Notes: a model not told the origin generated them from the letters alone. DNA of 64,000 nucleotides from Flavobacteriales bacterium (GCA_016718655.1 JADKCV010000018.1:19009-83008), one strand, 5' to 3'. Positions 3,540 to 62,833 are shown, counted from the stretch's first letter. Numbers and translations are program-made.

Positions 3540-3990
3540 ATGCTCATAGCACGCTTGATCCCTTTGGAAGCCACCTACCCGTTGCGCCTCTTGGTGCTAC
3601 GTCCCGGAGGTGCCTTGGCGGACTGTCATTTCGAAAGCGATCTGGTGGATGGCGGGTTCCATGTCGGCACCTTCACTGGCGACGCCTGCATCGCTGTGGG
3701 ATCGTTCAGTCCTGAGGCGCATCCCTGAACTTCCGGCTGAACGCCCATATCGCTTGCGGGGCATGGCCACCCATCCGGACCACCAGGGGACCGGAGCGGG
3801 CAAGTCACTGATGCGAACTGCCATCACTGAGATCGAGGAACGCGGTGGCGATCGGTTGTGGTGCAATGCACGGGCGATCGCGGTGCCGTTCTATCTGCGG
3901 ATGGGGCTGCGGATCCACGGTGCATCGTTCGCGATACCAGGCATCGGCACCCACCATGTGATGCATCGCTCCTTCACCGGGGAAGGATAG
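3540..3990 (+). CDS. GNAT family N-acetyltransferase; +1 frameshift at ~3723-3725
   Basis: MLIARLIPLEATYPLRLLVLRPG... continues after deleting one C into ELPAERPYRLRGMATHPDHQGTGAG (acetyl-CoA motif A) and LWCNAR...FYLRMG. Confidence 0.85.
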
Positions 3991-3995
3991 CTTCG
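3988..3995 (+). promoter_or_regulatory. -7 box variant TAGCTTCG, 12 nt before the next ATG
   Basis: TAnnTTCG overlapping the GNAT stop codon; ATG at 4000. Confidence 0.4.
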
Positions 3996-3999
3996 TGCC

Positions 4000-5403
4000 A
4001 TGCCGCTCACACGCACCGACCGGCTGCTGGTCCTGGGACTGGTGGCCCTCAACCTCGCCCTGAAGCTGGCTTGGACCGGTGCCGCGGAGTTGGCCCATGA
4101 TGAGCCGTTCACGGTGTTCTGGTCCCAGCGCCCGCTCACCGAGCTCTGGGCCATGTTCCGCACGGAGAACAACCCGCCGCTGTACTTCTTCTTGATCAAG
4201 GTTTGGAGTTGGATCGTGCCCTTCGAGGCCGGTTGGCTTCGTGTTCCATCGGCCGTGGCCAGTTCCTTGGTCGTTTGGCCGCTTTTCTTGTTGGCCCATC
4301 GGTCCGGTGATCGCCGTGTGGCTGTTCTCGCCGCCATCCTGTTCACGTGCAGCAACCACCACTATGGCTTCGCACATGAGGTTCGCGCCTATGCCCTGTT
4401 CACCCTGCTCACCACCACCGGCATGTGGCTGCTCACACGCGCCATACAACGCCCGGAACAAGGTGTGAAGCTCATGCTGCACCTGTCCATGCTGAACGTG
4501 GTCCTGGTGTACACCCACTTCTTCGGCTGGCTGGTGGTGGGCCTTCAGGGCGTGATGGTGCTTTTGCTTCCCGAGATGCGCCACCTGCGGCGGGGCTTCG
4601 CTTTCGGTGCCGCGATGACCCTATGCTGGTTCCTGCCCTACGGCATCATATTCATGGAGCGGATGACGCAGAGCGTGGGCCAAGGCACTTGGTTGGAAGC
4701 TCCTGTGCCGGAGGAACTCTACAACATGATCTGGCGATGGAGCAATGCTCCCGTGTTGGCAGTGGGCTTCCTGGTGGTCATCGTCATTGCCTCCTTCCGG
4801 GACCGGTTGCGCAGCTTCGGACTCCGAATGGCCCTTATCTGGGCCTTTGTTCCGCTAGTGGGCATGTTCGCCGTCAGTTTCAGCATCCCCATCTTCCTGG
4901 ACCGGTACCTGGTGTACGCTGCGCCCGGGTTCGCATTGGCGGTGGCCTTCTCCATGCCGATCATCCTTCCCTCGGAACGGATACGGACCGCGGTAATGGC
5001 CTTCGCCGGGCTTGGCATGCTGGCCACCTTCATCCCATGGAACGTCACCGGTCCACATCCCGGTCGTGTGGTCCAAGTGGAGGAAGCCTGGTGTGAAGGG
5101 TCTTGTTCGGTGGAAGTGGTCCCTCGATGGTATTGGCTCACCTACCTGGCCACCAAGGATATCCGGTCCTTGCAGCAACCCACCTCCGAACACATGGCGT
5201 ACGCGAATGCCCTTGAGTGGCGGTCCGATGCAGCGGTAACCTCCGCTCCGACCGATACCCTTCAGGTGGCCGTGCTCATCGACGCTGGATCGGAACTGGT
5301 GGACCCTGAGCGGAACCGATACCGGGAACTCCGCGCCATCTACGGCCGGGTGGATTCCTTGGAGGCCGACCACAAGGTGTGGGTGTACCGTTTCAGGCGG
5401 TAA
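4000..5403 (+). CDS. GT-C fold integral membrane glycosyltransferase (GT39/PMT-like)
   Basis: Multi-TM 467 aa; first loop acidic motif HDEPFT, then ENNPPLY, LRVPSA, EVRAYAL and YTHFFG, typical of PMT_2-type transferases. Confidence 0.75.
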   Translation: MPLTRTDRLLVLGLVALNLALKLAWTGAAELAHDEPFTVFWSQRPLTELWAMFRTENNPPLYFFLIKVWSWIVPFEAGWLRVPSAVASSLVVWPLFLLAHRSGDRRVAVLAAILFTCSNHHYGFAHEVRAYALFTLLTTTGMWLLTRAIQRPEQGVKLMLHLSMLNVVLVYTHFFGWLVVGLQGVMVLLLPEMRHLRRGFAFGAAMTLCWFLPYGIIFMERMTQSVGQGTWLEAPVPEELYNMIWRWSNAPVLAVGFLVVIVIASFRDRLRSFGLRMALIWAFVPLVGMFAVSFSIPIFLDRYLVYAAPGFALAVAFSMPIILPSERIRTAVMAFAGLGMLATFIPWNVTGPHPGRVVQVEEAWCEGSCSVEVVPRWYWLTYLATKDIRSLQQPTSEHMAYANALEWRSDAAVTSAPTDTLQVAVLIDAGSELVDPERNRYRELRAIYGRVDSLEADHKVWVYRFRR

Positions 5404-5513
5404 GCGTCCAACGGTCCATCCCAACCGGCAACCGTCCATGGATCAGTGGACCACCGGATCGATCCAACGTGGACCTTTGCATGGAATTCCCAACCGAACA
5501 AACGTTCCAGCAC

Positions 5514-7466: not shown

Positions 7467-7492
7467 GTCGAAGTCGAAAATCCACTCCTCTG

Positions 7493-7524
7493 CGAACGGC
7501 GGCCCTTTCAACGGCCGCCGTTCG
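7493..7524 (+). terminator. GC-rich hairpin after the S9 peptidase
   Basis: 12-bp inverted repeat CGAACGGCGGCC / GGCCGCCGTTCG with an 8-nt loop; weak U-tract. Confidence 0.5.
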
Positions 7525-10553: not shown

Positions 10554-10556
10554 CTC

Positions 10557-13066: not shown

Positions 13067-13149
13067 CTTCTCCTGGTGAACACTCTGTACATCATTGCGT
13101 TACACTGCATCGACCTGCTTCAAAAAGAGGTTTACTTTCGTCCGAGCAC

Positions 13150-14058
13150 ATGGGACCGTTCCTCACGCATTTTCAGATACGCGACCTGGAGGAGTTCTCC
13201 GGCGTGAAGGCCCATACCATACGGATGTGGGAGAAGCGTTACGGGTTATTGGAGCCGGAACGCAGCGACACCAACATCCGCTTCTATGGACTCGAACAGC
13301 TCAAGACGATCCTGAACGTTAGCTTCCTGAACCAGCATGGCCTGAAGATCTCAGTCATCGCAGCCATGAGCCTGGAAGAACGGGAGTTGAAGGTCCAGGA
13401 GCTTGCAGGCCAGCAAGGCACGGGCGGGGATGTGCTGAACACCTTGAAGATGGCCATGCTCGCCTTCGACGAGTTGTTGTTCATGCGCACCTCCAAGGCC
13501 TATGGCGACCGCCATGGGTTCCGAGCGTTGGTCGAAGAAGTGTACGTACCTCTGCTCGAGAACATCGGCGTGCTGTGGCAGACCAATGCCATCTGTCCAG
13601 CACAAGAGCACTTCGTGAGCAACATCATCCGCCACGAACTCATCGTGGCCACGCATGCCTTGGCACCGGCATCGGCCACCAAGCGCACCACCCACGTGCT
13701 GTACTTGCCTGCTGATGAGATCCACGAGTTGGGTCTCTTGTATCTGAACCACGTGATCCGCAACAAGGGTGAGCGGACCATCTACCTCGGCCAGAGTGTT
13801 CCCATGGAGGATCTACGTCAAGTGGCTGCACTGCATGGTGGTCCGCTGGTCTTCATCACCGTACTGATGGCCAATCCGGCCCCGGCGGATGTGCCTGCCT
13901 ACCTCCTGAAGCTGCGCGCCATGATCCCGGATGAACGGGTGAGCTTCTGGGTGACCGGGAGCCAACTGGCCCGTGTGGCGCCCATGGACGTTCCAACAGG
14001 AATGAACCTGTTCAAGAGCATGCGGGATGTCATCGCTGCCTTGGACGGCAGCAACTGA
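13150..14058 (+). CDS. MerR family regulator with a B12-binding domain (CarH/LitR-like)
   Basis: MerR HTH (TIRMWEKRYG); W-x9-EH motif (W 13576, EH 13606-13611); E-x-H-x-x-G cobalamin motif (EIHELG, 13717-13734); YLGQSVP. Confidence 0.88.
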   Translation: MGPFLTHFQIRDLEEFSGVKAHTIRMWEKRYGLLEPERSDTNIRFYGLEQLKTILNVSFLNQHGLKISVIAAMSLEERELKVQELAGQQGTGGDVLNTLKMAMLAFDELLFMRTSKAYGDRHGFRALVEEVYVPLLENIGVLWQTNAICPAQEHFVSNIIRHELIVATHALAPASATKRTTHVLYLPADEIHELGLLYLNHVIRNKGERTIYLGQSVPMEDLRQVAALHGGPLVFITVLMANPAPADVPAYLLKLRAMIPDERVSFWVTGSQLARVAPMDVPTGMNLFKSMRDVIAALDGSN

Positions 14059-14071: not shown

Positions 14072-15479
14072 TCAGTCGGGAAACACCTTACCCGGGTTCA
14101 TGATCCCCAAAGGGTCCAGCGTGGCCTTGATCGCGCGCATCACAGCGAGCTGGGCCGGGTTGAAGGCGATATCCATGTATTCCCGTTGAACAAGGCCTAT
14201 ACCATGTTCACCGCTGAGCGTGCCCCCCAAGGAGACCGTCAATTGGAAGATCTCCCGGATGGCGTGGGTCAATTCGTGTTCCCAGTAGTGGTCCGAGAGG
14301 TCGCCTTTGATGATGTTGACGTGGAGGTTGCCATCACCCGCGTGCCCATAACACACCGACGAGAATCCATGCCGGGCACCGATCTCCTTCACCCCTTGCA
14401 ACAGTTTGGGTAGTTCGAACCGGGGGACCACGGTATCCTCTTCCTTGTAGACGCTGTGGGCCTTCACGCTCACCGGCACACTCCTGCGCAATCGCCATAG
14501 CGCATCCTTCTCTGAACTCGAAGCTCGCAAAGAGCACCTCACCTGCACCATGAGCCTCCACCACACCGAGGATGGTCTCGCACTCCTGCATGAGCACCTC
14601 CAAATGATCTCCATCCACCTCGATCAGCAGATATGCTGCGGGTCCGGTGGAAAGCTGCGTGGGAAGTCCATCGGTGAAGCGCATGGTCCAACCGATCGCG
14701 TCACGTTCCATGAATTCCATGGCACTTGGGGTGATCCCTGCCCGGAAGACCGCGCTTACCGCCTCACAGGCCTTGACCGCATCCGGGAAGGGCACCAGCA
14801 TCAACTGGGTGTGCTTGGGCAATGGTACGAGTTTGAGCACCGCGCGAGTGATGATGCCCAATGTCCCCTCACTACCCACCATCAGTCTCGTGAGATCATA
14901 GCCCGTGGCATTCTTCAGCGTATTGGCGCCGGTCCAGATCACCTCGCCATTGGGGAGCACGACTTCCAGGTTCAGGACGAAGTCGCGGGTGACCCCGTAC
15001 TTGACCGCGCGTGGCCCTCCTGCGTTCTCGGCAAGGTTCCCGCCAATGGTGCAACTGCCCTTGCTGGACGGATCGGGAGCGTAGTAGAGGCCTTTGGCTG
15101 CGACGGCGTCCTGTAGTACCTGTGTGATCACTCCGGGTTCCACTGTGACCTGCAGGTTCCGCTCATCGATGTCCAGTATCCGATCCATACGGTCCAATGC
15201 AAGCCCCACGCCACCGTGCACGGCAAGGGCACCGCCACTCAACCCCGTACGACCACCGATCGGCGTGATCGGGATGTGATGTGCGGCGCATAAGCGTACC
15301 ACGGCACTCACCTCGGCGGTATTCCGCGGTCTTACCACCACCTCCGGTGGGTGGTTCAGGTCCTCCGTCTCATCGTGGCCATATGCCGATCGCTGTTCCG
15401 TTGATGTCCAAACATCACCCGTGGGCACGGCATCCTTGAGTGCGGCTATGAATGCGCCGTCCACCTGCATTGCGATCAT
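14072..15479 (-). CDS. FAD-binding oxidoreductase (GlcD / D-2-hydroxyacid dehydrogenase-like); +1 frameshift at ~14521
   Basis: GGRTGLSGG, YAPDPSS, TIGGNLAENAGG, GSEGTLGII in the N-terminal ORF; GHAGDGNLH and SGEHGIG in the C-terminal ORF (14072-14614). Deleting one T joins GEVLFAS to SSEKDALW. Confidence 0.9.
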
Positions 15480-15483
15480 GACG

Positions 15484-15491
15484 CAAATGTA
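15484..15491 (-). promoter_or_regulatory. -7 box TACATTTG, 12 nt before ATG 15479
   Basis: Exact TAnnTTTG match on the minus strand. Confidence 0.6.
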
Positions 15492-24648: not shown

Positions 24649-25311
24649 CTACCCTACCGATCGCGGATGCCCCAGAACTTCCATCACTTTATGGGCTACT
24701 TCCTGGGCTTGGGCATAGACCATGAAATGACCACCCCCTTTCACTGTAACGGCATCCTTGATGGAGGACAGGGGCATCAGGTGGTCCTTATCTCCGTGGA
24801 TGTGCGTCAGGGGCCCCACTGGTGCCTGAGGTCCTTGCCATTCCAAGCATGCCGCGATCTGGATACGGAGTTGCTCCAGCGGATGAAGTTCCATGAAGCG
24901 GTCGAGCAATTCCACTTCCTCGGGCTTTTCCACCCCCATTTGCCAGCGCATTATGGGCATGGAACGCTTCATGAACGTCTTGTTCAACACCCGTTCAGGA
25001 TGGGTGCCGCGCAGAAGCTTCAGGTGCGGTGGCATTTCGTGCGCCCCCTTCCAGCTCGAAATGATGATCACCTGCTGTGGATGAGTGATGCTGGCCAACT
25101 CCTGGGCCACCATGCCGCCCATGCTCACCCCCAGCAACGCGTGTGGACGGGTCGCGTCCACTTGCCCCGCCAAGGCACGCGCGAAGTCGGATAGCGTGCT
25201 TCCTGGCGGCATTTCTGGCCAATCCAACTTCACCATCCGGTGACCTGGCAACTGCAACCGATCGAACAAGCGATGGTCGGCGCCCAAGCCCGGGATCAGG
25301 TACACGTCCAT
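24649..25311 (-). CDS. Alpha/beta hydrolase
   Basis: MDVYLIPGLGAD; nucleophile GVSMGG; IHGDKD; GGGHF. Confidence 0.88.
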   Translation of the reverse strand: MDVYLIPGLGADHRLFDRLQLPGHRMVKLDWPEMPPGSTLSDFARALAGQVDATRPHALLGVSMGGMVAQELASITHPQQVIIISSWKGAHEMPPHLKLLRGTHPERVLNKTFMKRSMPIMRWQMGVEKPEEVELLDRFMELHPLEQLRIQIAACLEWQGPQAPVGPLTHIHGDKDHLMPLSSIKDAVTVKGGGHFMVYAQAQEVAHKVMEVLGHPRSVG

Positions 25312-25355
25312 GGTACAAAGGTCCGAAGCAGGACCACGCCACGGAAGTGGGACCC

Positions 25356-26897: not shown

Positions 26898-28217
26898 GGA
26901 TGAGTTCGTCTTGTTTGATCGCCTTCTGTTCACCTGTCCGCATGTCCTTCACTGTCACGATGCCCTGCTTCAGCTCGTTCTCGCCGATGATCGCCACGTA
27001 GGGGATGCCCTTGTCGTCCGCGTACTTGAACTGTTTGGCCATCTTCACTTGGTCAGGATAGAGCTCGGCAGCGATGCCCGCTTCGCGCACCTGGCGCAGC
27101 AGTTTCAGGCAATGCATGGCCTCCGCTTCCCCGAAATTGGCGAAGAGCAACTTGGTGCTTCCACCGAGCTCCGCTGGGAACTTGTTCGTCTCCAACAGAA
27201 CATCGTAGATGCGGTCCGCTCCGAAGCTGATGCCCACACCACTCATATTCTTCAGACCGAAGATGCCGGTGAGATCATCATACCGGCCACCTCCACAGAT
27301 ACTGCTCTGTAACGTGCCTACGCGTGCTTTCACTTCGAAGATGGCACCGGTGTAGTAGTCGAGACCGCGGGCCAGGTCGGGTCGAATTCACTAGTGCGCA
27401 CTTCAACGCTACCCACCACGTCGAAGGTGAAGGATAGGTCCTTCAGGCCTTGTTGCGCGGTTGAATGAAGACCAACCACTTCTCCAACACCGGGCGTTGG
27501 TCGCTCCAGGTTCCTTTCAGATCGAACAAGGGAGCAATGCCTTTGATCGCATTCTCCGAAACGCCCTTCGTGCGCATCTCCTCCTCCACTTTCTCGCGCC
27601 CGATCTTGTCCAGCTTATCGATCGCCGTTACGATGTCGACCACCTTGTCCGGCTGCCCGCACACTTCGGCTATGCCACTCAGCACCTTACGGTCGTTGAT
27701 CTTCACCACCACCTGAAGTCCGAGCGCGGTGAAGACATCATCAAAGAGCTGAACGAGTTCCACTTCACTGAACAAGCTCGTGCTGCCGATCACATCCGCA
27801 TCGCACTGGTAGAACTCGCGATACCTCCCTTTCTGCGGACGATCCGCGCGCCACACCGGCTGGATCTGATAGCGCTTGAAGGGAAAAGCGATCTCGTTCT
27901 GATGCTGAACGACATAACGCGCGAAGGGAACAGTGAGGTCATAACGAAGGGCTTCACTCCGCAAAACCCTTACTGAGGTCCTCCAAGGCACGGTCGAGTT
28001 CGGCACCGCGCTTCAGCACCTTGAAGATCAACCGATCCCCCTCCTCGCCATACTTGCCGGTCAGCGTGTCCAAGTTCTCCATGGCCGGTGTTTCCAGCGG
28101 CAGGAAGCCGTACTTCTGGAACACCTGTTCGATGGTGCTGAAGATGTACTTGCGGCGCAGCATCTCCACCGGGGAGAAATCGCGGGTGCCTTTGGGGATG
28201 GAGGGCTTCTGTGCCAT
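26884..28217 (-). CDS. hisS: Histidine--tRNA ligase; three apparent frameshifts (~27958, ~27470, ~27374)
   Basis: Segments in different frames: PKGTRDF...[14 protein letters not shown]; [13 protein letters not shown]...[22 protein letters not shown]; [10 protein letters not shown]; GGGRYDDL...GISFGADRI; anticodon domain KQFKYAD...KDMRTGEQ. Confidence 0.93.
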
Positions 28218-28241
28218 GGGCCGCGAAAGTACGGGACGCGT

Positions 28242-42358: not shown

Positions 42359-43131
42359 TCAGCGGGCTTCCCATGCTTGGCGCAATGCACCCAGGAAGGC
42401 ATCGCTCTGCTGTGCGCCGCTCACTGCGAACTTGCGATCGAGCGCGAAGAAGGGCACGCCGCGAACGCCCAACTGCCGGGCCTCCGCCTCATCCTTGCGT
42501 ACTGCATCAGTGAACGCAATGGTCGTGAGCATTTCCGCCACAGCAGCCCCATCCAGGCCCACCTCACTAGCCAGACGGATGAGCGTAGGAACATCGGCAA
42601 GTGGGCGCCCTCCGTGAAATAGGCCTTGAACAGCCGCTCTTTCATTGCATTACCCTTCGCCACGGTCTTGGCGTATTGCAACACACGGTGCGCATCGAAG
42701 CTGCTGCCGATCACCGCCTTGTCCATGGCGTACTCCAAGCCGACCGTGCGAGCACGGTCCACCACACCCTGCACGCGCGCTTGGGCATCGGCGCGCGTAC
42801 CACCGTACTTGGCCACGAGCATGCCGTACATGTCGTGTTCACTGCGGGGCGGTGCTTCGGGGTCCAGTTCGAAGCTGCGCCATACCACTTCCACGCTGTC
42901 GCGATGCTCGAACTCCGCCAAGGCCCGCTCGAACTCGCGCTTACCGATGTAGCAGAACGGGCATACCACATCACTCCAGATCTCGACCTTCAGCGTGTTC
43001 TTCGTGTTCAAAGGATCCGTTGGCATGGCGTTAGATGGTGCTTGGGCAGGTGCAGGTGAACGCGCGCAACCCAGTACCAGAACTGCGGCCAACATAGCGA
43101 AATGCCATGGACTTCGCGGAGGGGAAGGCAT
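42359..43131 (-). CDS. DsbA family oxidoreductase (FrnE-like), probably a lipoprotein; -1 frameshift at ~42598
   Basis: LVLGC lipobox; EIWSDVVCPFCYIGKR; WRSFELDP; SFDAHR; after the shift GVRGVPFF...VSGAQ. Confidence 0.88.
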
Positions 43132-43135
43132 GCGA

Positions 43136-43143
43136 CAAATGTA
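43136..43143 (-). promoter_or_regulatory. -7 box TACATTTG, 12 nt before ATG 43131
   Basis: Exact TAnnTTTG match. Confidence 0.6.
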
Positions 43144-49114: not shown

Positions 49115-51094
49115 TCACTTACGCACCGGCGGGAAGAAGAACACCCACGGGTGCCGTTTGAAGTGTTGCCAAGCTGCACCTGCGATGGGCATCACCTCAC
49201 CAAAGGCAACACCCCGTGAGCGGAGTGCAAGGACCATGGAAAGACCGAAGCTGACCAGGAAATTGAACAGCCCGATGAGCCCGATACCCAATACCGGAAC
49301 GATGACCATGGCCGGGGTTACGTGCCAGTCCATCCCCACCAATCCCAACCCAAGGTTGCCTGCAGCGAAAGTGATATGCCTGATGTCCAGTGGTAGTCCG
49401 AAAAAAGCCCCGACCATGCCCACGGAGCCCATGAACACCGCGAACCAGAAATTGCTGATGATGCCCCCTGCATTGGCTTCATAGTATGCTGCCAGCGCTT
49501 GACGCCGCTTTGCGGGTAGAAGCAATTTGAGCACCGGATGAGCGGCGATGCGTTGGGGCACCCGGGCATGCTTGGACCGATTGGAGACGCTGCCTGCGAT
49601 GATACCGGAGAGGAACAGGAATACCCCGGCCAAGGCAGCATGCGGGATCGCCAGTGACCGGAAGGGGTCCAGTTCATGGATCATTTTCCCGGCTTTATGC
49701 GCGAAAAGCTCGGGGCCGAAAAGCGTATTCCATCCATACGCAAGACCAACCGCGACCGGAAAAGCCATCACCACGTTCCCCACAAAGGCGATGAATTGGG
49801 ATCGCCACACCCGGGCCAATAGGTCGACAAGGGCCGCATAACGTTCCGCAGAAGGTGCCTGCCGACCTTCGTCGAGCGTGGCAGCGATGGTGGCCGCGGT
49901 CATGGCCGGTTGTTTGGTGGCCAATGTGAGATGCAACAGGTAGATCCCGATGAAGGCCCATGCGTAGTTCAAGCTGTACAGCATGGCATGGCCAAAGGGA
50001 CTGGCCTCCAGTGTACCTGCCCACGCTTTGAGAACACATGCCAAGGCCACCAACGCCCCCCCACCCAAGGCCGTCCGCAACATGTGTCCGTATTCACCGG
50101 AGGTGGAGGTGATGTAGTGCTCTCCCGCACGACCGGCATGGCCAGTGATCTCGCGGGCCACGACCTGTGTGGACCGGTCGATGAACCCGAGCACATGCGT
50201 ACTACCTGCACTGAGCCTGACCAACTCACGGAGGAGCTGGACCTGTTTGCTGCGCTGAGCGCGGTCGGGATCGATCACCAGCAAGCCCAATACCTGCTCC
50301 ATTCGGTCCAGTAGCCGCTCCAGGATGATCAGTTGTTGGTTCGCCGAGAAGCCCATGCCGAGTTGCTCGGTATTGGCATAGGCCCGTTCGATGAACGTTC
50401 TGCATTGGCCCAGTAGGAGCAACACATGGCGATAGCCTTCGTCCTGATGATCACGAGAGCGTTCGCCCAACCGCACACGCGCGATGTGATCATCCATCTC
50501 ATCGGCCAAGGCAACGAACGGATTGTCGAGGTTCTCATAGGTGGGTACCATCCGCATGACCTCATCCTCGAATGCCTTACCCGCTGCACGCAGACCCAGT
50601 ACTTGCAAGGCAAAGACGAGCTCCTCCACGTGCCAGCGAATGGAACCTTCATCGTTCAACAGCTCCAAAAGGTCCAGCAGCCGCACCAGGTCCTGTTCAT
50701 CCAAGCAATCCACCCATTCCGCATCCCGCTCACGGAAGAACACGTTCACCAGGAGGTGATCGCTGGTACCTTCCTCGGGCTGCGGCGGTAGTACCTTGTA
50801 AACCAAGCGCCGCTTCAACTCCCGCCAGAAAGCACCGCCAGGAATACCCGCATCGGTGAAGGTGCGGTGGAACCGCATTCCGGAGGTGAGCCTTCGCAGG
50901 TAGTCGGCTAGCCCGGCCCGAAGGCCTTGATCCTGCTCCAAAAGAGCGATCAAGTGCTTCACGCGTGCGGATGCATCTTGCGGTCGACGGGAGGAGGGCC
51001 GTATGGCCTCGACCAATTCTGCAAGCAGATCGATATCGTGGCCTTGGTGCCGGGCGATGGCAAGCAGCACATCGAGCAAGTGTGAATGGGCCAT
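49115..51094 (-). CDS. Gcr/'site-specific recombinase' family integral membrane protein
   Basis: LVYKVLP, GEHYIT, SLNYA, LATKQPAMTAA, RSQFIAFVGNV, GLPLDIRHITF; multi-TM C-terminal half. Confidence 0.85.
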   Translation of the reverse strand: MAHSHLLDVLLAIARHQGHDIDLLAELVEAIRPSSRRPQDASARVKHLIALLEQDQGLRAGLADYLRRLTSGMRFHRTFTDAGIPGGAFWRELKRRLVYKVLPPQPEEGTSDHLLVNVFFRERDAEWVDCLDEQDLVRLLDLLELLNDEGSIRWHVEELVFALQVLGLRAAGKAFEDEVMRMVPTYENLDNPFVALADEMDDHIARVRLGERSRDHQDEGYRHVLLLLGQCRTFIERAYANTEQLGMGFSANQQLIILERLLDRMEQVLGLLVIDPDRAQRSKQVQLLRELVRLSAGSTHVLGFIDRSTQVVAREITGHAGRAGEHYITSTSGEYGHMLRTALGGGALVALACVLKAWAGTLEASPFGHAMLYSLNYAWAFIGIYLLHLTLATKQPAMTAATIAATLDEGRQAPSAERYAALVDLLARVWRSQFIAFVGNVVMAFPVAVGLAYGWNTLFGPELFAHKAGKMIHELDPFRSLAIPHAALAGVFLFLSGIIAGSVSNRSKHARVPQRIAAHPVLKLLLPAKRRQALAAYYEANAGGIISNFWFAVFMGSVGMVGAFFGLPLDIRHITFAAGNLGLGLVGMDWHVTPAMVIVPVLGIGLIGLFNFLVSFGLSMVLALRSRGVAFGEVMPIAGAAWQHFKRHPWVFFFPPVRK

Positions 51095-51192
51095 GGGGGG
51101 AAGTTAGGTCCGCTTACTTCACCGAACTGCGTTGATCAACTTCCATCGGTCGCGTTCACACGTCGGAGCAGAGCGCGAACTTCGCCACCGCA

Positions 51193-52263
51193 ATGGCAAC
51201 TCACCTCGTAACCGGCGGCTGCGGATTCGTTGGCCGCAACATGGTCCAGCGACTCTTCAACACCACCGCTGACCGGATCCTGGTCATCGACGACCTCAGC
51301 GTAGGCACCCACCCCGATACCTGGGCGCCTTGGAAGTGCAATGGCGTGGACCGGGGCCTCACTGTGTACGGCGATGGGCGTGTGCTCTTCCTACAGGCGG
51401 ATCTGCGCGACGTGCTTCGCGAACTGAACAAGGATGCTGGCTACTTCAACAAGCAGTACGGTCTGGACGTCACGAACTTCCGCGACATCTTCCACTTCGC
51501 GGCCATCGTTGGCGGTCGCAGCAAGATCGACGGCGATCCCATGCTGGTGGCGCAGGACCTCAGCATCGATGCGGAGCTCTTCCTCTACGTGTGCCGCCAC
51601 AAGCCACACCGCTTCCTCTACCCCAGCAGCAGCGCCGCCTACCCCATCGACCTGCAGACCGAGAGCAACACCCTCAAGTTGAAGGAGAGCGACATCGACT
51701 TCAAGAAGATGGGCGAGCCCGACATGACCTACGGCTGGAGCAAGCTCACGGGCGAGTTCCTGGCCAAGATCGCGGCCAGCCACTACGGCGTGCATGTCAC
51801 CTGCATCCGCCCCTTCAGCGGGTATGGCGAGGACCAGGACCTCTCCTACCCCGTGCCCGCCATCGCCGCGCGTGCCGCCAAGAAGGAGAACCCCTTCGAG
51901 GTCTGGGGCACCGGCAAACAGGGCCGCGACTTCGTCCACATCGACGACGTGCTCGACCTCACGCTCCTTGCCATGGACAAGATCAGCGACGGCAGGGCCA
52001 TCAATATCGGCATGGGCAGGCTCACCAGCTTCCTGGAACTGATCGAGGTATTCACCGGCTTCGCGGGATACAAACCCACCATCAAACCCTTGCTCGACAA
52101 ACCTGTTGGTGTACACAGCCGCTACTGCGACATGACCTGGGTGGAGGAGAACCTCGGGTGGAAGGCGAAGATCAGTATCGAGGAAGGGATGCGCCGGGTG
52201 TATGAGGCGGCGTTGAAGAAGAGGAGGCCGGGTGCCGGCCCGGGCAGACGGACCTGGACATGA
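51193..52263 (+). CDS. NAD-dependent epimerase/dehydratase (extended SDR, nucleotide-sugar)
   Basis: VTGGCGFVG, FHFAA, PSSSAAY, YGWSK (YxxxK), WGTGKQGRDF. Confidence 0.92.
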   Translation: MATHLVTGGCGFVGRNMVQRLFNTTADRILVIDDLSVGTHPDTWAPWKCNGVDRGLTVYGDGRVLFLQADLRDVLRELNKDAGYFNKQYGLDVTNFRDIFHFAAIVGGRSKIDGDPMLVAQDLSIDAELFLYVCRHKPHRFLYPSSSAAYPIDLQTESNTLKLKESDIDFKKMGEPDMTYGWSKLTGEFLAKIAASHYGVHVTCIRPFSGYGEDQDLSYPVPAIAARAAKKENPFEVWGTGKQGRDFVHIDDVLDLTLLAMDKISDGRAINIGMGRLTSFLELIEVFTGFAGYKPTIKPLLDKPVGVHSRYCDMTWVEENLGWKAKISIEEGMRRVYEAALKKRRPGAGPGRRTWT

Positions 52264-53656: not shown

Positions 53657-53738
53657 ACCAGTGCGGCGCAACGACGCCACATGGATGAAGCGGAAGTATG
53701 GAGGCCTTGTGTTGAGATCATCTTGCGTAGCTTTCGGT

Positions 53739-54272
53739 ATGAACACCATGCTACGCCCCGTCGCACTTTCAGTTCTCGGCATGCAGGGATTATTGATCTC
53801 TGCGCAGGAGATCGAGTTCGATCAAGGCAACTGGCGATCACAGGGAGCTGAATATCAAAGGCGCTTGATCACTGTTTTGCAGAACGAAGAACGGGTCGAC
53901 ACGATGTACACGGAGGATCTGAGCACTGGTGAACTGGAAATGGTCGTCGAACGACATCCCTTGGCCCGGTATGAATACTTCACGGTCAATGATCCTGTTC
54001 CTGCCCTGCGTCGAAGGATCGATATTCGTCAGCAGGAGATCTCTGATACCACTTACGTAGAAAGGATCGAGGGTGGCGAAATGGTCATGGTTGTTCAAAG
54101 GATCATCAAGGACATCCCCAACGGCACGTATCAGGAGTTCTACCCCAATGGTATGATCCGCATCACAGGCGCGTTGGATGGTTACAAGCCCGACGGCACG
54201 CTGAAAAAGACGGGCACGTGGATGGAATGGGATGCCGCTGGGAACGTCATCCGCGAGGAACACTACCCGTAG
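53739..54272 (+). CDS. Secreted hypothetical protein with MORN-variant-like C-terminal repeats
   Basis: Signal-like N-terminus; PNGTYQEFYPNG...G...KKTGTWMEWDAAGNVIREEHY. Confidence 0.65.
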   Translation: MNTMLRPVALSVLGMQGLLISAQEIEFDQGNWRSQGAEYQRRLITVLQNEERVDTMYTEDLSTGELEMVVERHPLARYEYFTVNDPVPALRRRIDIRQQEISDTTYVERIEGGEMVMVVQRIIKDIPNGTYQEFYPNGMIRITGALDGYKPDGTLKKTGTWMEWDAAGNVIREEHYP

Positions 54273-55821: not shown

Positions 55822-55851
55822 TCCGCACGAAGACCGCACCTTTGTGGTCCC

Positions 55852-57510
55852 ATGTTCCGTCCCCTTCCTCTCCTCGTGGTCCTGTTGATCGGCGCCACCG
55901 CTTGTACAACTGTGGACGTGCCTGCGGATACCAAGGACCTGGAGGAAAAGACCAAGGACATCAGCGCGGTATTCGAATCGAAGGAGGCCTACAGCGTCCT
56001 CCGGCTGGACAGTTCGGATATAGAAGCCTTCCTGGACAACTTCCCGAGCTATCGCACGGACACGGTCGGTATTCGTAATTTCTACCATCGTCGTAAATAC
56101 CAATACGCATGGTTCGTCAACGACTCCTTGTCCCAATCGGCACTGGCCTTCTTCGATCTCGTGAATAGTGCCGATACGGCCTTCGCGGCAGTGCGTGCCC
56201 TGCGGGACCGGATGCGTGAACTGTTGCAGACCACCAAGGCGGATGGCCGGAACATCGCACTCTGCGACAGTTGCCAACTGCACCTCGAACTCGCGCTCAC
56301 GGCCCAATTCTTCGGGTTCGCAGACAAGAAGTATGGCGGGGTGGTAGGCAAGGACCTTCGCGAGCTCGACTGGTTCATCCCGCGTCGAAAGAAGGATGTT
56401 TCCCGACTGATCGATTCCCTCGCTGCGGGTCACATGGACCTTTCGCCGTGGGAGCCCGTGCATCCCCAGTACCGCTCGCTCAAATCCCAGCTTCGCCACT
56501 ATCACCTGTTGGACAGTCTTTCCGACTGGACACCGATCAGCCTTGGAGAATTGCGGAAGCTGGAACCGGGCCAGCGCAATGTCATCGTACCCGACCTACG
56601 GCAACGTCTACTGTTGTTGGGCGACCTCACCACCACCGGCGACACCCTTTACCTGAACAGTAAGGACTACGACAGCACCCTGGTCCTTGCCGTGCAGCGC
56701 TTCCAAGAGCGGCACGGCCTTCACCCGGATGGCGTGGTGGGCAAGGGTGTGGTGGCAGCCATGAACGTGCCCCCGAGCGAGCGATTGCGCACCCTGTTGG
56801 TGAACATGGAACGACTTCGATGGGTACAGGAGGAGTATGCCCCGGATCAGGTCCTGGTGAACATCCCGGAGTTCCGGATGCACGTCTTCGAAGAAGGCCA
56901 CGAAGTATTGAGCATGGACGTGGTCGTGGGTACAGTGGCCACGCGTACCGTGATCTTCAGCGATTCCCTATCACAGATCGTTTTCAGCCCCATATGGACC
57001 ATTCCCCAGAGCATCGTCCAAGGCGAGATCCTGCCATCCATGGCGCGCGACCCCAACTACCTGCGGAAGAAGAACATGGAGAAGATCGGTGGAAGCACGA
57101 CGAACCCGATCATCCGCCAACGACCGGGTGCTGGCAATGCCTTGGGTCGGGTGAAGTTCCTTTTCCCCAATAGCTACAGCATCTACTTCCACGATACCCC
57201 GAGCAAGGGAGGGTTCGCTCGCGAACAGCGCGCATTCAGTCACGGCTGCATCCGATTGAGCCAGCCGGCTGCACTCGCCGAATACCTGCTGCGCAACGAC
57301 ACCACATGGACACCGACGAAGATCAAGGAGGCCATGTTCAGTGAGCAGGAGAAATATGTGCGACTGCCGAAGAAGAGGCCCGTCACCATCGGTTACTTCA
57401 CGAGCTGGGTGGACGAAAAGGGTGCTTTGCATTTCAGGGAGGATGTCTACGGTCACGATGCCCGCCTGGCCAACGAGCTCTTCGACGAGCCGAGCCCCCT
57501 ACCCTTGTGA
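55852..57510 (+). CDS. L,D-transpeptidase, YcbB/LdtD-like lipoprotein with a peptidoglycan-binding domain
   Basis: GATAC lipobox; AVQRFQERHGL.PDG; NMERLRW; VNIPEF; NALGRVKFLFPN; FHDTP...AFSHGCIRL. Confidence 0.92.
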   Translation: MFRPLPLLVVLLIGATACTTVDVPADTKDLEEKTKDISAVFESKEAYSVLRLDSSDIEAFLDNFPSYRTDTVGIRNFYHRRKYQYAWFVNDSLSQSALAFFDLVNSADTAFAAVRALRDRMRELLQTTKADGRNIALCDSCQLHLELALTAQFFGFADKKYGGVVGKDLRELDWFIPRRKKDVSRLIDSLAAGHMDLSPWEPVHPQYRSLKSQLRHYHLLDSLSDWTPISLGELRKLEPGQRNVIVPDLRQRLLLLGDLTTTGDTLYLNSKDYDSTLVLAVQRFQERHGLHPDGVVGKGVVAAMNVPPSERLRTLLVNMERLRWVQEEYAPDQVLVNIPEFRMHVFEEGHEVLSMDVVVGTVATRTVIFSDSLSQIVFSPIWTIPQSIVQGEILPSMARDPNYLRKKNMEKIGGSTTNPIIRQRPGAGNALGRVKFLFPNSYSIYFHDTPSKGGFAREQRAFSHGCIRLSQPAALAEYLLRNDTTWTPTKIKEAMFSEQEKYVRLPKKRPVTIGYFTSWVDEKGALHFREDVYGHDARLANELFDEPSPLPL

Positions 57511-57543
57511 TCGTCCGACCCGATCTTGAGCGGCAACACCGAC

Positions 57544-60363: not shown

Positions 60364-60379
60364 CCGGTCCCGTTCCTGG

Positions 60380-61336
60380 TCACCAGCCAAGGCGCTGCTT
60401 GACGCGATAACTGTTCCGATCCGAACTGTTGCGGCTCACCAGTTCAGCCACGAAGCCCACCGTGAACAACTGCACCCCGATGACCATGGCGACCAAAGCC
60501 ACATAGAACAAGGCCTGATCGGATACCAAGGGAGCCGGTTCATGCCAAAGGAACAGGTGAAGCAACTTACTGACCAGCAGCCAGGCCACCGCACCCATAC
60601 CGAACACGAACATCATGGTACCCAGGCCACCGAAGAAATGCATGGGCTTCTTCCCGAAACGGAAGATGAACGTGATGGTAAGCAGGTCCAGGAACCCGTT
60701 GATGAAGCGGTCGAAACCGAACTTGGTCCTACCGTACTTCCGGGCGTGGTGCTTCACCACCTTCTCGCCGATGTTCCGGAACCCCTCCTTCTTGGCGATG
60801 AAAGGGATATACCGGTGCATTTCGCCGAACACCTCGATACTCTTCACCACCTCACTGCGATAGGCCTTCAGGCCGCAATTGAAGTCGTGCAAGTGTACAC
60901 CGCTCACCCGCCGGGTGGTCCAGTTGAAGAGCTTGGTGGGCAAGGTCTTGGTGATGGGGTCGTAGCGTTTCTTCTTCCAACCGCTCACCAGATCGAACCC
61001 TCCCTGGTCGATCATGCGATAAAGCTCGGGAAGTTCATCCGGATCATCCTGAAGGTCGGCATCCATGGTGATGACCACCCTACCTTTTGCAGCACGGAAG
61101 CCTTCGTTCAAAGCTGGGCTCTTGCCGTAATTGCGCCCGAAGCGGATCCCTTTGACACGATCATCGGCCTTGGCCAGTCGCTCGATCGCCTGCCATGAAC
61201 CATCGGTGCTGCCATCGTCGATGAAGATCACCTCATAGTGCACCGCCATAACGCCAAGTACGCCATGGAGACGGTCCGCCAGGATCGGCAACGACTCATG
61301 CTCGTTCAATAAGGGAACGACGATGCTCACGTCCAT
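60380..61336 (-). CDS. GT2 polyprenol-phosphate glycosyltransferase (ArnC/DPM1-like)
   Basis: SIVVPLLNE, IDDGSTDGS, RNYGKSPAL, TMDADLQDDP, HDFNCGLKAYR, GEMHRYIP; C-terminal TM pair. Confidence 0.93.
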   Translation of the reverse strand: MDVSIVVPLLNEHESLPILADRLHGVLGVMAVHYEVIFIDDGSTDGSWQAIERLAKADDRVKGIRFGRNYGKSPALNEGFRAAKGRVVITMDADLQDDPDELPELYRMIDQGGFDLVSGWKKKRYDPITKTLPTKLFNWTTRRVSGVHLHDFNCGLKAYRSEVVKSIEVFGEMHRYIPFIAKKEGFRNIGEKVVKHHARKYGRTKFGFDRFINGFLDLLTITFIFRFGKKPMHFFGGLGTMMFVFGMGAVAWLLVSKLLHLFLWHEPAPLVSDQALFYVALVAMVIGVQLFTVGFVAELVSRNSSDRNSYRVKQRLGW

Positions 61337-61381
61337 GCTGCAAGGATAAGCAGGGATGATCGAAGGATCGAGCGATCGTCC

Positions 61382-61389
61382 TACCTTTG
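61382..61389 (+). promoter_or_regulatory. -7 box TACCTTTG of the SRP RNA
   Basis: Exact TAnnTTTG match ending 3 nt before the RNA's closing helix. Confidence 0.75.
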
Positions 61390-61392
61390 TGC

Positions 61393-61490
61393 GGGGCAAG
61401 TCCTGTACGACCAGCTCCCGCTGAATCCCCCAGGTCCGGAAGGAAGCAAGGGTAGGCGGTTGTAGCGGTGCGATGCGGGTCGCTTGCCCC
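61393..61490 (+). ncRNA. ffs: Signal recognition particle 4.5S RNA
   Basis: Domain IV core CAGGTCCGGAAGGAAGCAAG with a GGAA tetraloop; ends pair (GGGGCAAG / CTTGCCCC); followed by a T7 tract at 61493-61499. Confidence 0.9.
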
Positions 61491-61702
61491 ACTTTTTTTG
61501 CCCGTATTGAACGAATCGCGGTCATGTTCCAAGCCCCATTGATCCGGTCCCGTACCCGAATTCCAAGGCGCTAAGCTGCCGCCGATCATCGAGGGGGATC
61601 AAGGTTGTTCTTCCTGAGGTCGCACCCATCCTGCCATGGATCATAGCCCGTTCGTTCATCAGGGCCCTGATCCAAACCACGATCAGCCTTTCCGGTTCGC
61701 AC

Positions 61703-61710
61703 TAGCTTTG
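61703..61710 (+). promoter_or_regulatory. -7 box TAGCTTTG, 12 nt before the alkB ATG
   Basis: Exact TAnnTTTG match; ATG at 61715. Confidence 0.6.
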
Positions 61711-61714
61711 GGCA

Positions 61715-62833
61715 ATGTCCACCGTTGCGATCCGCTCCTTACCAGCGCTCCGTCGGCACATCCGCTTCCGGGCCCTGCGTTATTCGATCACCCTGACCGC
61801 CCCCGCGCTAGCGATCGCGGGACTGCTGCTTCCTGGCTGGTGGACGTGGGCCACGGTATTCTATGCCTTCGGGGTGATCCCGCTGTTGGAACTACTGATC
61901 CCTGCGGACAAGTACAATTTGAGCAAGGAAGAAGGAACGGCCGCTTTGGAAGACCCCCTGTTCGATAGGCTGCTTCATGCCATCGTTCCCATCCAATGGG
62001 GTATTCTCATCCTATTCCTGTTCCAAGTGGATCGGACCGGTCTTGCCCTTTGGGAAGTGGCCGGGAGGATCCTGAGCATGGGCATCCTATGCGGGATCCA
62101 TGGGATCAACGTGGCGCATGAATTGGGCCACCGCGTCAGGCGCTGGGAGCGGGATCTTGCGCGTGCCTTGTTGCTCACGAGCCTTTACATGCACTTCATA
62201 ATCGAACACAACCGGGGCCACCACCGCCGCGTGGCCACACCCGACGATCCTGCCTCGGCACGGTTTGGCGAATGGCTGCCCCTGTTCTGGTTGCGCAGCG
62301 GTATCCTCAGCTTCATCAGTGCATGGCACATCGAGGCTGACCGTATGCGTAAGGAAGGTCACAAACCTTATGGATGGCGCAACGAAATGCTCCAGGCCTT
62401 GTTCTGGCAAGGCGCGCTCGTGCTTGTGATCGGTGTGGTGTTCAATGTCAAGGTCATGACCGCATTCCTACTGGCAGCGTTCGCGGGTATGATCCTGCTG
62501 GAAACGGTGAACTATATCGAGCATTATGGCCTACAGCGCGCGCGTTCGAACCAAGGGGGATATGTCCGGGTGCAGCATGTCCATTCATGGAACAGCGACC
62601 ACGTCATGGGGCGTCTTATGCTCTTCGAACTCTCCCGGCATAGTGACCACCACTGGAAGGCCAGTCGCAAATACCAGGTCCTGGATAGCCATGCGGATGC
62701 ACCACAATTGCCCACCGGTTACCCGGGCATGATGTTATTGAGCGCGATCCCACCCTTGTTCTTCGCCGTGATGCATCCCCGATTGAAGCGGATGTACGAA
62801 CAGTACGACACGCTCGTCGGTCCGGTCCGATAA
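61715..62833 (+). CDS. alkB: Alkane 1-monooxygenase (membrane non-haem di-iron)
   Basis: His boxes HELGH, EHNRGHH, NYIEHYG (HYG motif), LSRHSDHH; VATPDDPASAR; PQLPTGYPGM. Confidence 0.9.
   Translation: MSTVAIRSLPALRRHIRFRALRYSITLTAPALAIAGLLLPGWWTWATVFYAFGVIPLLELLIPADKYNLSKEEGTAALEDPLFDRLLHAIVPIQWGILILFLFQVDRTGLALWEVAGRILSMGILCGIHGINVAHELGHRVRRWERDLARALLLTSLYMHFIIEHNRGHHRRVATPDDPASARFGEWLPLFWLRSGILSFISAWHIEADRMRKEGHKPYGWRNEMLQALFWQGALVLVIGVVFNVKVMTAFLLAAFAGMILLETVNYIEHYGLQRARSNQGGYVRVQHVHSWNSDHVMGRLMLFELSRHSDHHWKASRKYQVLDSHADAPQLPTGYPGMMLLSAIPPLFFAVMHPRLKRMYEQYDTLVGPVR

Follow-up and report, generated by a model that had tools for sequence, protein, structure and literature searches.

The promoter-like boxes of the 64,000-nt window (the whole stretch of DNA that was analysed) are likely to be sigma-A promoters abutting the ATG, and the genes behind them are predicted to give mRNAs that are leaderless or carry a leader of 0-3 nt. 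The geometry between box and start codon is fixed and restricted to ATG, it is conserved in orthologues, the start codons are correctly placed and positions that were not selected in the search are promoter-like. The promoters would be of the ordinary Bacteroidota housekeeping type (sigma-A, 'ABfr'), with the -7 element TAnnTTTG, relaxed to roughly TAnnTT(T/C)G or nAnCTTYG, lying at -12 to -5 from the A of the ATG. With C at -1 and A at +1, this A would be the start site of RNA polymerase. The mRNA 5' end would then be the AUG itself or lie within 0-3 nt of it, and a ribosome with initiator tRNA would bind directly to this AUG at the 5' terminus, in place of an A-rich leader; the position of the transcription start and the translation of a 5'-terminal AUG are predictions from the sequence. 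Shine-Dalgarno pairing is not used by Bacteroidota ribosomes. The arrangement is a minority mode across the phylum; it appears to be enriched in an uncultured high-GC 'Flavobacteriales' clade, where it would account for about 13-16% of genes.

The sites are summarized in Table 1. The seven boxes with an ATG at exactly 12 nt that were reported in the preliminary description agree with the sequence in all coordinates and strands, as do the positions of the pair at 11 nt (53728/53739) and of hisS at 14 nt. Four of these seven boxes deviate from the strict consensus, as had been stated (3988, 25323 and 61348 by one mismatch, 51106 by two). The site at 327 was absent from that description, and its labels were corrected in that the FAD oxidase is the gene at 15479 and the gene at 4000 is the PMT_2-type glycosyltransferase. 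The region 52370-53656 encodes a GT1 glycosyltransferase rather than hisS.

Table 1. Boxes and start codons in the window. Coordinates refer to the 64,000-nt window; d is the distance from the first nucleotide of the box to the A of the ATG.
Box	Sequence	Match	Spacer	ATG	Extent	Strand	d	Feature	Remarks
327-320	TAATTTTG	strict	gccc	315	313..327	(-)	12	gene 1-315, N-terminus MADDQGVLLTPQRTGDGS	truncated by window start
3988-3995	TAGCTTCG	one mismatch	tgcc	4000	3988..5403	(+)	12	PMT_2-type membrane glycosyltransferase, 4000-5403	
13133-13140	TACTTTCG		9 nt	13150	13133..14058	(+)	17	MerR/B12-binding regulator	predicted leader ~5 nt
15491-15484	TACATTTG	strict	cgtc	15479	14075..15491	(-)	12	GlcD-like FAD-linked oxidase	frameshift near 14521-14526
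25323-25316	GACCTTTG	box-like, one mismatch	tacc	25311	24649..25323	(-)	12	alpha/beta hydrolase	Pfam match from residue 4
28231-28224	TACTTTCG	one mismatch	cggccc	28217	26884..28231	(-)	14	hisS, 26884-28241	two frameshifts split gene; predicted leader ~2 nt
43143-43136	TACATTTG	strict	tcgc	43131	42421..43143	(-)	12	DsbA-like lipoprotein (MPSPPRSPWHFAMLAAVLVLGC...)	divergent to SLT/LysM gene
51106-51099	TAACTTCC	two mismatches	cccc	51094	49115..51106	(-)	12	PF10136 'site-specific recombinase' family membrane protein	divergent to epimerase gene
51177-51184	GAACTTCG	box-like	8 nt	51193	51177..52263	(+)	16	NAD-dependent epimerase	predicted leader ~4 nt
53728-53735	TAGCTTTC	one mismatch	ggt	53739	53728..54272	(+)	11	secreted MORN-repeat protein	
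55837-55844	CACCTTTG	box-like	7 nt	55852	55837..57510	(+)	15	YkuD L,D-transpeptidase lipoprotein	predicted leader ~3 nt
61348-61341	TATCCTTG	one mismatch	cagc	61336	60380..61348	(-)	12	GT2 glycosyltransferase	heads GT2-DUF6056 pair; divergent to SRP RNA
61382-61389	TACCTTTG	strict			61382..61493	(+)		SRP RNA	
61703-61710	TAGCTTTG	strict	ggca	61715	61703..62833	(+)	12	AlkB/fatty-acid-desaturase family membrane protein	next possible start 53 codons downstream

The distribution of distances between box and start codon was analysed. The strict motif TAnnTTTG occurs 9 times on both strands of the window against 8.6 in dinucleotide shuffles, which is the chance level, and therefore the promoter model rests on the position of the boxes and not on their abundance. 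An ATG at +12 follows four of the nine strict boxes (P(ATG) = 0.012; P(>=4 of 9) = 2.5e-6), and one further strict box precedes the SRP RNA. A genome-wide histogram had been proposed in the preliminary description, where the lack of a peak at 11-13 nt was to count against leaderless transcripts; run on the window and about 0.46 Mb of related high-GC 'Flavobacteriales' metagenome genomes, it gave a sharp peak at 12 in both. The window histogram, built for offsets 8 to 60 from boxes with at most one mismatch and from in-frame ATGs lying within the first third of a coding ORF, revealed 8 matches at d = 12 and 0-3 at each other offset, with no GTG or TTG peak; the d = 12 match at 23101, within a giant PKD gene, is probably chance. 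Out-of-frame ATGs gave 0 matches at d = 12. The counts for the high-GC relatives at d = 11-15, which leave out the window and the query genes, were 3, 15, 8, 5 and 5; with a background of 1.8 per offset, this is an excess of 27 or 12.6% of 214 genes. The low-GC loci likewise peaked at d = 12, with 19 over a background of 3.4. The start codons at d = 12 were ATG 28, GTG 1 and TTG 2 in the high-GC set, where GTG candidates were twice as numerous, and ATG 28, GTG 2 and TTG 0 in the low-GC set. This distribution indicates a strong preference for AUG at the predicted 5' end, with GUG tolerated.

The spacing was calibrated on the small SRP RNA, which was matched by Rfam RF04183 at 61387-61493 with 104.5 bits. 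The box at 61382 given in the preliminary description holds, but the closing helix, placed there at 61393, starts from 61394 (box + 12), and 61393 (box + 11) offers only a possible additional G-C pair; the helix thus begins 3-4 nt past the box. In the published promoters of F. johnsoniae (PMC6847099) the element reads T-12 A-11 T-8 T-7 T-6 G-5 and the start site follows after 4-5 nt; since this box occupies -12 to -5, the start is predicted on the A of the ATG.

The sequence signature of 29 aligned d = 12 sites was examined at -1, -9 and -10, positions on which no selection had been made. The residue at -1 was C in 79% of the sites (P = 6e-8), which together with A at +1 forms a pyrimidine(-1)/purine(+1) start-site dinucleotide. 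G was found at -9 in none of the 29 (P = 4e-5) and at -10 in 14%, compared to 30% in the background. The low G at -9 and -10 agrees with the TAHHTTTG refinement (PMC6847099), to which the TAG boxes are a partial exception; several window boxes have G at -10 (TAG...), which is nearly absent in F. johnsoniae and speaks against the promoter reading. The C at -1 and the missing G at -9 are in keeping with genuine sigma-A -7 boxes from which transcription starts on the A of the ATG. The strict octamer is present at 327, 15491, 43143 and 61703 and in the SRP box at 61382. In the 29 aligned sites the -33 element TTTG was not enriched at any position from -45 to -25; its absence is a weak criterion, because the element is barely evident in F. 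johnsoniae and not evident in the F. johnsoniae and B. thetaiotaomicron global data. The box-adjacent class has an A content of 0.14 from -15 to -1, and its GC-rich 4-nt spacer ends in C. The other genes of the clade show mild upstream A enrichment (0.24 vs 0.195), with 10557 (caacacaaaatcaacagactcATG) and the YkuD_2 orthologues as examples.

The conservation of the arrangement in orthologues was analysed. The spacing from box to ATG is kept while the flanks have diverged for the GT2, PMT2-like, PF10136 recombinase, MORN and FAD-oxidase genes. The GT2 box lies at d = 12 in L001-L004, L162 and L163 and at d = 14 in L005 and L006, that is at 12 or 14 in 8 clade genomes, and at d = 32 in L168; the low-GC GT2 homologues have no box. 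For PF10136, TAWCTTnn stands exactly 12 nt ahead of the start in all seven loci, the start codon being ATG in five and GTG in L163 and L166. Three of four PMT2 orthologues have the box at d = 12 (L091, TAGCTTCG cccc ATG; L102, TAGTTTCG ccca ATG; L099, TAGCTTCG tgcc GTG..ATG). The MORN orthologue in L168 carries the identical TAGCTTTC followed by ggc and ATG (d = 11). The FAD oxidase showed a box with at most one mismatch at d = 11-14, mostly 12, in 23 of 70 distinct orthologous loci of 33-66% GC from across the Bacteroidota, and 8 more high-GC loci have CATCTTCG-type boxes at d = 12-13. The DsbA-like orthologue in L166 has GATCTTTG tgcc ATG (d = 12), and that in L163 has, by eye, GATCTTTG caccgc ATG (d = 14), where the pipeline calls a downstream in-frame ATG. 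The epimerase orthologues bear CATCTTTG or GATCTTTG at d = 13-16 (L003, L161, L162, L163, L165, L168), those of YkuD bear TTCCTTTG at d = 15 (L162, L163) or d = 13 (L004), and those of MerR/B12 bear TAnnTT(T/C)G-type boxes with at most one mismatch at d = 12-15 (L090, L103, L093, L094, L085). The hydrolase orthologues L091 and L100 have no box, the gene there abutting the hutH stop codon, and the single orthologue found for gene 315 (L094) has no box at 12. The leaders of about 0-3 nt proposed in the preliminary description are partly supported: as a prediction they agree with every available computational test, but the hydrolase site 25311 is not conserved.

It is extremely improbable that chance combined with relaxed matching (one or two mismatches) produced the sites. 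The four off-consensus boxes among the seven, the d = 12 match inside a gene at 23101 and the lack of conservation of 25311 would be expected from such coincidences, but the strict boxes alone reach the P value given above, the spike occupies a single offset with empty out-of-frame controls and is replicated in relatives, and the mismatched boxes of GT2, PMT2 and PF10136 are conserved in orthologues. Chance is rejected for the site class as a whole; it may still account for 25311, which is the weakest site. The start codons could be misplaced, the real starts lying downstream and the +12 ATG inside a 5' UTR, and alternative in-frame starts do occur a few codons downstream (e.g. 15470, 53748). 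This is very unlikely, since N-terminal homology extends to residues 1-4 for GT2 (80 homologues align from about residue 1, the Pfam domain from residue 4), the hydrolase (Pfam domain from residue 4) and PF10136 (homologue N-termini align at the same M), and the ATG is conserved together with the box in distant FAD-oxidase orthologues. The signal or lipoprotein peptides of the DsbA, MORN and YkuD proteins begin at, and need, these ATGs, as does the HisRS N-terminus, whose usual start corresponds to ATG 28217; the next start of 61715 would come only 53 codons later. PMT2 has an N-terminal membrane helix, and no earlier start codon exists in the ORF in four of the seven d = 12 cases of the preliminary description (4000, 15479, 51094, 61715); at 3988 and 61703 the box itself provides the in-frame stop through its TAG. 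Judged by these N-termini, the ATGs of GT2, hydrolase, PF10136, FAD oxidase, hisS, DsbA, MORN, YkuD and PMT2 are the true translation starts.

Another explanation is that the boxes are real promoters or promoter-like, but secondary or unused, and that the genes are read mainly from longer upstream transcripts with leadered mRNAs. Half of the window's ten sites (315, 4000, 25311, 28217 and 53739) lie 9-82 nt behind a co-directional gene (20 nt for 315), so that read-through from upstream promoters is possible; no box separates the hydrolase orthologues from hutH, to which they are coupled, and the GT2 orthologue of L168 works from the same box at a distance of 32 nt. This explanation is nevertheless unlikely, because 15479, 43131, 51094, 61336 and 61715 are divergent or isolated unit heads with no upstream co-directional gene, even the box at 3988, whose TAG serves the upstream GNAT ORF as stop codon, has been kept in three or four lineages, and the exact 12-nt register, the restriction to ATG and the C at -1 would not have persisted had the distance been irrelevant. 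The motif could also be read as a ribosome-binding element of leadered mRNA that is peculiar to the lineage and placed at -12 to -5, as its fixed distance to the start is that expected of a ribosome-binding site and Bacteroidota start-codon logos are AT-enriched near -12/-13 and -8 (PMC3155529). Such a role is highly improbable. The identical octamer stands ahead of the SRP RNA, which is non-coding, and is equally far from the 5' helix there, it equals the experimentally defined sigma-A -7 element, and the other genes show mild A enrichment instead. In the syntenic block the box is found at GT2, SpecRec, epimerase, YkuD, MORN and SRP RNA, that is at first genes and divergent pairs; the operon-internal GDSL1, GDSL2 and MBOAT and most DUF6056 orthologues are without it, although ribosome-binding motifs would be expected there too by GeneMarkS-2 logic. 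The box, preceding a non-coding RNA and missing from these operon-internal genes, looks like a promoter rather than a ribosome-binding signal, although five window sites stand close behind co-directional genes.

The frequency of the promoter-like geometry was compared between groups. It was found in roughly 13-16% of genes in 0.41-0.53 Mb of the high-GC clade vs about 4% in low-GC relatives, the loci, partly syntenic, having been chosen through three box-bearing query genes and their syntenic neighbours rather than from whole genomes and the motif stringency differing between the two sets. At least half of the members had it in 19% of 174 high-GC gene families (controls 4.6-7.5%) and in 4.8% of 564 low-GC families (controls 0.9-2.5%). 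Among independently called genes at six syntenic loci, again from the sample chosen through box-bearing queries, it was present in 21 of 85. The box-abutting ATG would concern about one gene in six and looks about three to four times commoner here than in other Bacteroidota, where leaderless mRNAs are known but rare. By dRNA-seq, published studies have reported 3.7% of 5' UTRs below 10 nt in B. thetaiotaomicron (PMC7366714), 5.5% leaderless mRNAs in F. psychrophilum (PMC9723704), and 35-36 leaderless transcripts in Segatella copri (bioRxiv 2024.04.05.588293); in F. johnsoniae, 13% of predicted leaders are of 10 nt or less (PMC6847099). The leaderless mode, described as notable in the preliminary description, is thus already known in Bacteroidota, and only its higher frequency here may be notable. 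It can be suggested tentatively that the clade has moved a quarter or more of its transcription units to leaderless initiation from a relaxed -7 box (nAnCTTYG), as a GC-linked convergence with Actinobacteria and Deinococcus. If true, gene finders and leaderless surveys limited to the Pribnow box would systematically miss the leaderless mode of this clade, and the convergence would sit inside a phylum thought to depend on A-rich leaders.

The low-GC Bacteroidota (B. thetaiotaomicron, F. psychrophilum, F. johnsoniae, Segatella copri) have the same phylum-specific sigma-A -7 box, occupying -12 to -5, and their mapped transcription start coincides with the start codon or lies beside it, which in the present clade is predicted, and the FAD-oxidase geometry is common to both groups; the box of the clade is more degenerate (TTCG; C or G for T at -12; TAG tolerated). 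The Actinobacteria and Deinococcus-Thermus (GeneMarkS-2 'group C') likewise combine high GC with a promoter at a fixed short distance from first-gene starts and a 5'-terminal AUG, sometimes GUG, as is predicted in the clade; such starts are put in the wrong place by standard gene finders, which happened here in L161 and L165. In 'group C' the promoter is a Pribnow box of sigma-70 (TANNNT) that lies about 6-8 nt from the ATG, and 25-50% of operons are leaderless (PMC6028130), whereas the clade has the Bacteroidota octamer followed by a spacer of 4 nt. Leaderless surveys in which only the Pribnow box was modelled could not detect this octamer, a limitation stated in PMC3160421. The remaining genes of the clade, with their mild A enrichment, resemble the canonical Bacteroidota initiation (A-rich, Shine-Dalgarno-independent, GeneMarkS-2 'group B'), whereas the box-adjacent class has no room for an A-rich leader.

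The spacing between the -7 promoter box (TAnnTTTG) and the start codon was analysed, with d as the distance from the first base of the box to the A of the start codon; d=12 is the box, four bases and ATG. The preliminary description had listed box/ATG pairs at this distance and asked whether leaderless mRNAs are frequent; its coordinates were all found correct, and one more strict site absent from its list was located (gene 315, genes being named by the position of their ATG). Strict boxes were not over-represented in the window (9 on both strands against 8.6 in dinucleotide shuffles) and box abundance is therefore unusable as evidence. Exactly four bases and then ATG followed four of the nine; given P(ATG) = 0.012, the probability of at least four is 2.5e-6, and a fifth box drives the SRP RNA. 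The distance histogram it had proposed was computed in the window by pairing all boxes that had one mismatch or none with all in-frame ATGs of the leading third of coding ORFs. This histogram revealed a single spike of 8 at d=12, other offsets from 8 to 60 holding 0-3 each, and no spike for GTG or TTG. One d=12 match, at 23101, is probably due to chance; it falls inside the gene of a surface protein of 2036 aa that has a CHU_C type IX secretion signal and nine or more PKD repeats. The box/ATG observation is confirmed and is not a chance effect. Two more strict boxes, upstream of the genes for malate synthase and an M42 peptidase, probably belong to ordinary promoters of leadered mRNAs; in the peptidase ORF no ATG or GTG precedes the TTG at 1891.

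Coordinates and box signatures of the features in the window and in homologous loci (L-numbers) of other Bacteroidota genomes and metagenomes
Feature	Position	Strand	Signature and spacing	Loci
Gene 315	box 327, ATG 315	-	strict box	
PMT2-like	ATG 4000		TAGCTTCG or TAGTTTCG + 4 nt + ATG	L091, L102
GT2	ATG 61336		TATCCTTG, CATCTTTG, TAACCTTG or TAATCTTG + 4 nt + ATG	L001-L004, L162, L163
GT2 orthologues			TACTTTCG or TACATTCG + 6 nt	L005, L006
GT2 orthologue	~461-495 of L168		TATCCTTG + cagc kept, ATG 20 nt further on (d=32)	L168
PF10136	ATG 51094		TAWCTTnn exactly 12 nt ahead of start	7/7 loci
PF10136 orthologues, GTG start	10001 of L163; 1885 of L166		GTG at box + 12	L163, L166
MORN	ATG 53739		identical TAGCTTTC + 3 nt + ATG	L168
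Epimerase	ATG 51193		d=13-16	
YkuD	ATG 55852		d=13-15	
MerR	ATG 13150		d=12-17	
FAD-linked oxidase	14075-15479	-	frameshift near 14521-14526	
FAD-oxidase upstream regions			CATCTTCG, CAACTTCG or GAACTTCG in many high-GC orthologues, d=12-13	L085-L098
Separate conserved motif	~20-25 nt before FAD-oxidase ATG		CCGA(T/C)TTTTACG	L134, L142, L145, L147, L149, L153-L156
hisS	26884-28241	-	three reading frames	
GNAT acetyltransferase ORF	3610-3990	+		
PKD surface protein	18389-24499	-	TACTTTCG 26 nt upstream of ATG 24499	
Strict box, M42 peptidase	1720-1727	+	171 nt upstream of first possible start	
Strict box, malate synthase	62831-62838	+	86 nt upstream of first possible start	
Public calls with misplaced starts beside boxes	3965-4963; 8894-9898; 1659-2759			L161; L165; L165

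Wherever it was testable, the ATG beside the box is the real start, judging from homologues and N-terminal features. In 80 loci the alignment of GT2 homologues began at about residue 1, the Pfam domain begins at residue 4 in GT2 and in the hydrolase (25311), and PF10136 homologues share the N-terminus M(x)5-7 L..I..Y.G. The DsbA-like (43131), MORN and YkuD proteins carry signal or lipoprotein peptides at the N-terminus, the PMT2-like protein has a membrane helix there, and the 14 N-terminal residues of hisS read from its ATG (28217) were counted in favour of this start. For 61715 (AlkB/desaturase family) the next possible start lies 53 codons downstream; the search for orthologue context gave none and the exact-protein look-up of its product found no identical record. 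Public gene calls placed epimerase orthologues at a downstream GTG despite an upstream CATCTTTG + 5-7 nt + ATG, and one GT2 at an upstream TTG, overlapping a MarR gene.

The 241 RNA-seq-supported promoters of F. johnsoniae carry T-12, A-11, T-8, T-7, T-6 and G-5, with 4-5 nt from the element to the start site and G nearly absent at -10 or -9 (PMC6847099), and the F. psychrophilum element likewise lies at -12 to -5 (PMC9723704). A four-base spacer after an element at -12 to -5 therefore places the predicted +1 on the A of the ATG. Alignment of 29 d=12 sites showed C at -1 in 79% (P = 6e-8), which together with the A of the ATG fits the usual pyrimidine/purine start dinucleotide, and G at -9 in 0/29 (P = 4e-5) and at -10 in 14%, none of these positions being imposed by selection; no -33 element was visible in these sites. 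The use of the SRP RNA to calibrate the spacing also held, its helix beginning at box + 11 or + 12, in accordance with the predicted +1.

A ribosome-binding signal at the same place was weighed against a promoter. The box is present at first genes and divergent pairs and absent from the operon-internal GDSL1, GDSL2 and MBOAT genes of a conserved block and from most DUF6056 orthologues, a distribution which argues for a promoter. Structure at the 5' end was discarded as evidence of leaderless mRNAs: the first 40 nt were less folded than internal windows (-7.5 vs -9.1 kcal/mol, P = 0.001) and the first 5 nt were unpaired with a probability no different from internal windows (P = 0.5), but weak folding is common to gene starts in general and does not discriminate. 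At five window sites, which closely follow a co-directional gene, transcription reading through from upstream might also supply the mRNA. One site, 25311, is doubtful; its box was conserved in neither informative orthologue (L091 and L100), where the gene abuts the hutH stop codon without a box. On the sequence evidence, the best reading, and a rather likely one, is that ordinary sigma-A promoters with the -7 box give mRNAs with no leader or almost none.

The architecture was also followed at single genes (see the table). In L168 the GT2 orthologue has the same promoter in a leadered form; the remaining upstream sequence of GT2 orthologues was unalignable, and in low-GC Bacteroidota GT2 simply comes after an upstream stop and a spacer rich in A. 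The PF10136 box, the weakest of those that the preliminary description listed, proved conserved; the start is ATG in 5 loci and GTG in 2, and the latter would be leaderless GUG starts if the transcripts are leaderless. The PMT2-like orthologue of L099 has GTG at +12. Where the GNAT 3' end could be aligned (window, L091 and L099), the TAG that opens the PMT2-like box also ends the GNAT gene upstream. This GNAT ORF matches only the C-terminal half of Pfam models and may be truncated or frameshifted. The sole orthologue found for gene 315 (L094) had no box at 12. The short-leader neighbours epimerase, YkuD and MerR are alike in spacing. For the FAD oxidase, the box lies at d=11-14 in 23/70 distinct loci spanning 33 to 66% GC, including 12 strict boxes among 45 low-GC loci, and CATCTTCG, CAACTTCG, GAACTTCG or CACCTTCG stands at d=12-13 in a further eight high-GC loci. 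In this gene the box-on-start architecture is phylum-wide. The first three of these boxes have C at -6 and no T at -12, pointing to a relaxed -7 consensus (nAnCTTYG) for parts of the clade. The CCGA(T/C)TTTTACG motif, found mostly in low-GC loci (L134 has 57% GC), may be bound by a regulator or act as a variant promoter.

The window (64 kb, 59.7% GC) encodes type IX secretion C-terminal domains (CHU_C, Por_Secre_tail) and a small SRP RNA of Bacteroidales type, which place it in Bacteroidota. Its nearest genomes are uncultured metagenome-assembled 'Flavobacteriales bacterium' of 50-63% GC with GT2 orthologues of 73-83% identity, and L081 and L082 are metagenome contigs of the same organism. The samples behind L081, L082, L001 and L003 were activated sludge and lake material. 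The frameshift in the FAD oxidase, which moves the second half of PF02913 into another frame, may be genuine because the same 381-aa ORF occurs in these two other assemblies; the protein has 467-469 aa in relatives. The two frameshifts of hisS, despite its being an essential gene, are due either to indels in the assembly or to decay of this copy.

For replication, 28 non-redundant high-GC loci (0.41 Mb) and 98 low-GC Bacteroidota loci (1.41 Mb), reached via GT2 and FAD-oxidase proteins, were pooled. With at most one mismatch, the high-GC set including the window gave 28 ATG, 1 GTG and 2 TTG starts at d=12, and out-of-frame ATGs of the same regions gave 0. High-GC relatives, with window and query genes excluded, showed [3, 15, 8, 5, 5] at d=11-15 against 1.8 per offset, an excess of 12.6% of 214 genes; strict boxes of the low-GC set showed [13, 19, 6, 6, 12] against 3.4, an excess of 3.5% of 1105 genes (4.5% with one mismatch). 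Orthologues were also collapsed into families from 34 re-pooled high-GC loci (0.53 Mb, window included) and the same 98 low-GC loci. The geometry was found in at least half of the members in 19% of 174 high-GC families (controls 4.6-7.5%) and 4.8% of 564 low-GC families (controls 0.9-2.5%); among multi-member families the counts were 12/48 (1-2 in controls) and 6/173. Across six syntenic loci, 21/85 genes called by public pipelines had a box at d=11-16, counted from the start assigned to them. The about three- to four-fold enrichment of box-abutting starts over low-GC relatives is a lead and not a measurement: the frequencies are biased upward, since three genes that themselves bear boxes led to the loci and part of the sample is syntenic with the window, and stringency differs between the sets. 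The leaderless-to-leadered share (0.44-0.5 vs 0.17-0.25) was set aside, since the 18-45 nt leadered window was about at the chance level estimated from control windows with at most one mismatch.

If confirmed, these results would mean that the balance of A-rich-leader and leaderless mRNAs differs several-fold among Bacteroidota, perhaps in step with genome GC, and that a promoter on the start codon can be kept phylum-wide for single genes such as the GlcD-like FAD oxidase. Start calling in high-GC Bacteroidota metagenome assemblies would then need a model with the -7 box at -12. Public calls for orthologues of the epimerase and of GT2 can be seen to sit at the wrong start.

No report of frequent leaderless mRNAs in high-GC Bacteroidota was found in the literature searched. 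Computational surveys sought Pribnow boxes only, and a possible underestimate for Bacteroidetes was stated (PMC3160421); GeneMarkS-2 classed 90% of the Bacteroidetes group as having non-Shine-Dalgarno ribosome-binding sites (PMC6028130). Leaders exceed 10 nt for 87% in F. johnsoniae (PMC6847099), 5' UTRs below 10 nt make up 3.7% in B. thetaiotaomicron (PMC7366714), leaderless mRNAs are 5.5% in F. psychrophilum (PMC9723704) and S. copri has 35-36 leaderless transcripts (bioRxiv 2024.04.05.588293). Leaderless mRNAs in Bacteroidota are documented but rare, and their kind is already known. The possible novelty lies in their frequency in a high-GC clade and in how deeply the architecture is conserved at single genes; as the mechanism is already known, the advance would be quantitative and practical rather than conceptual.
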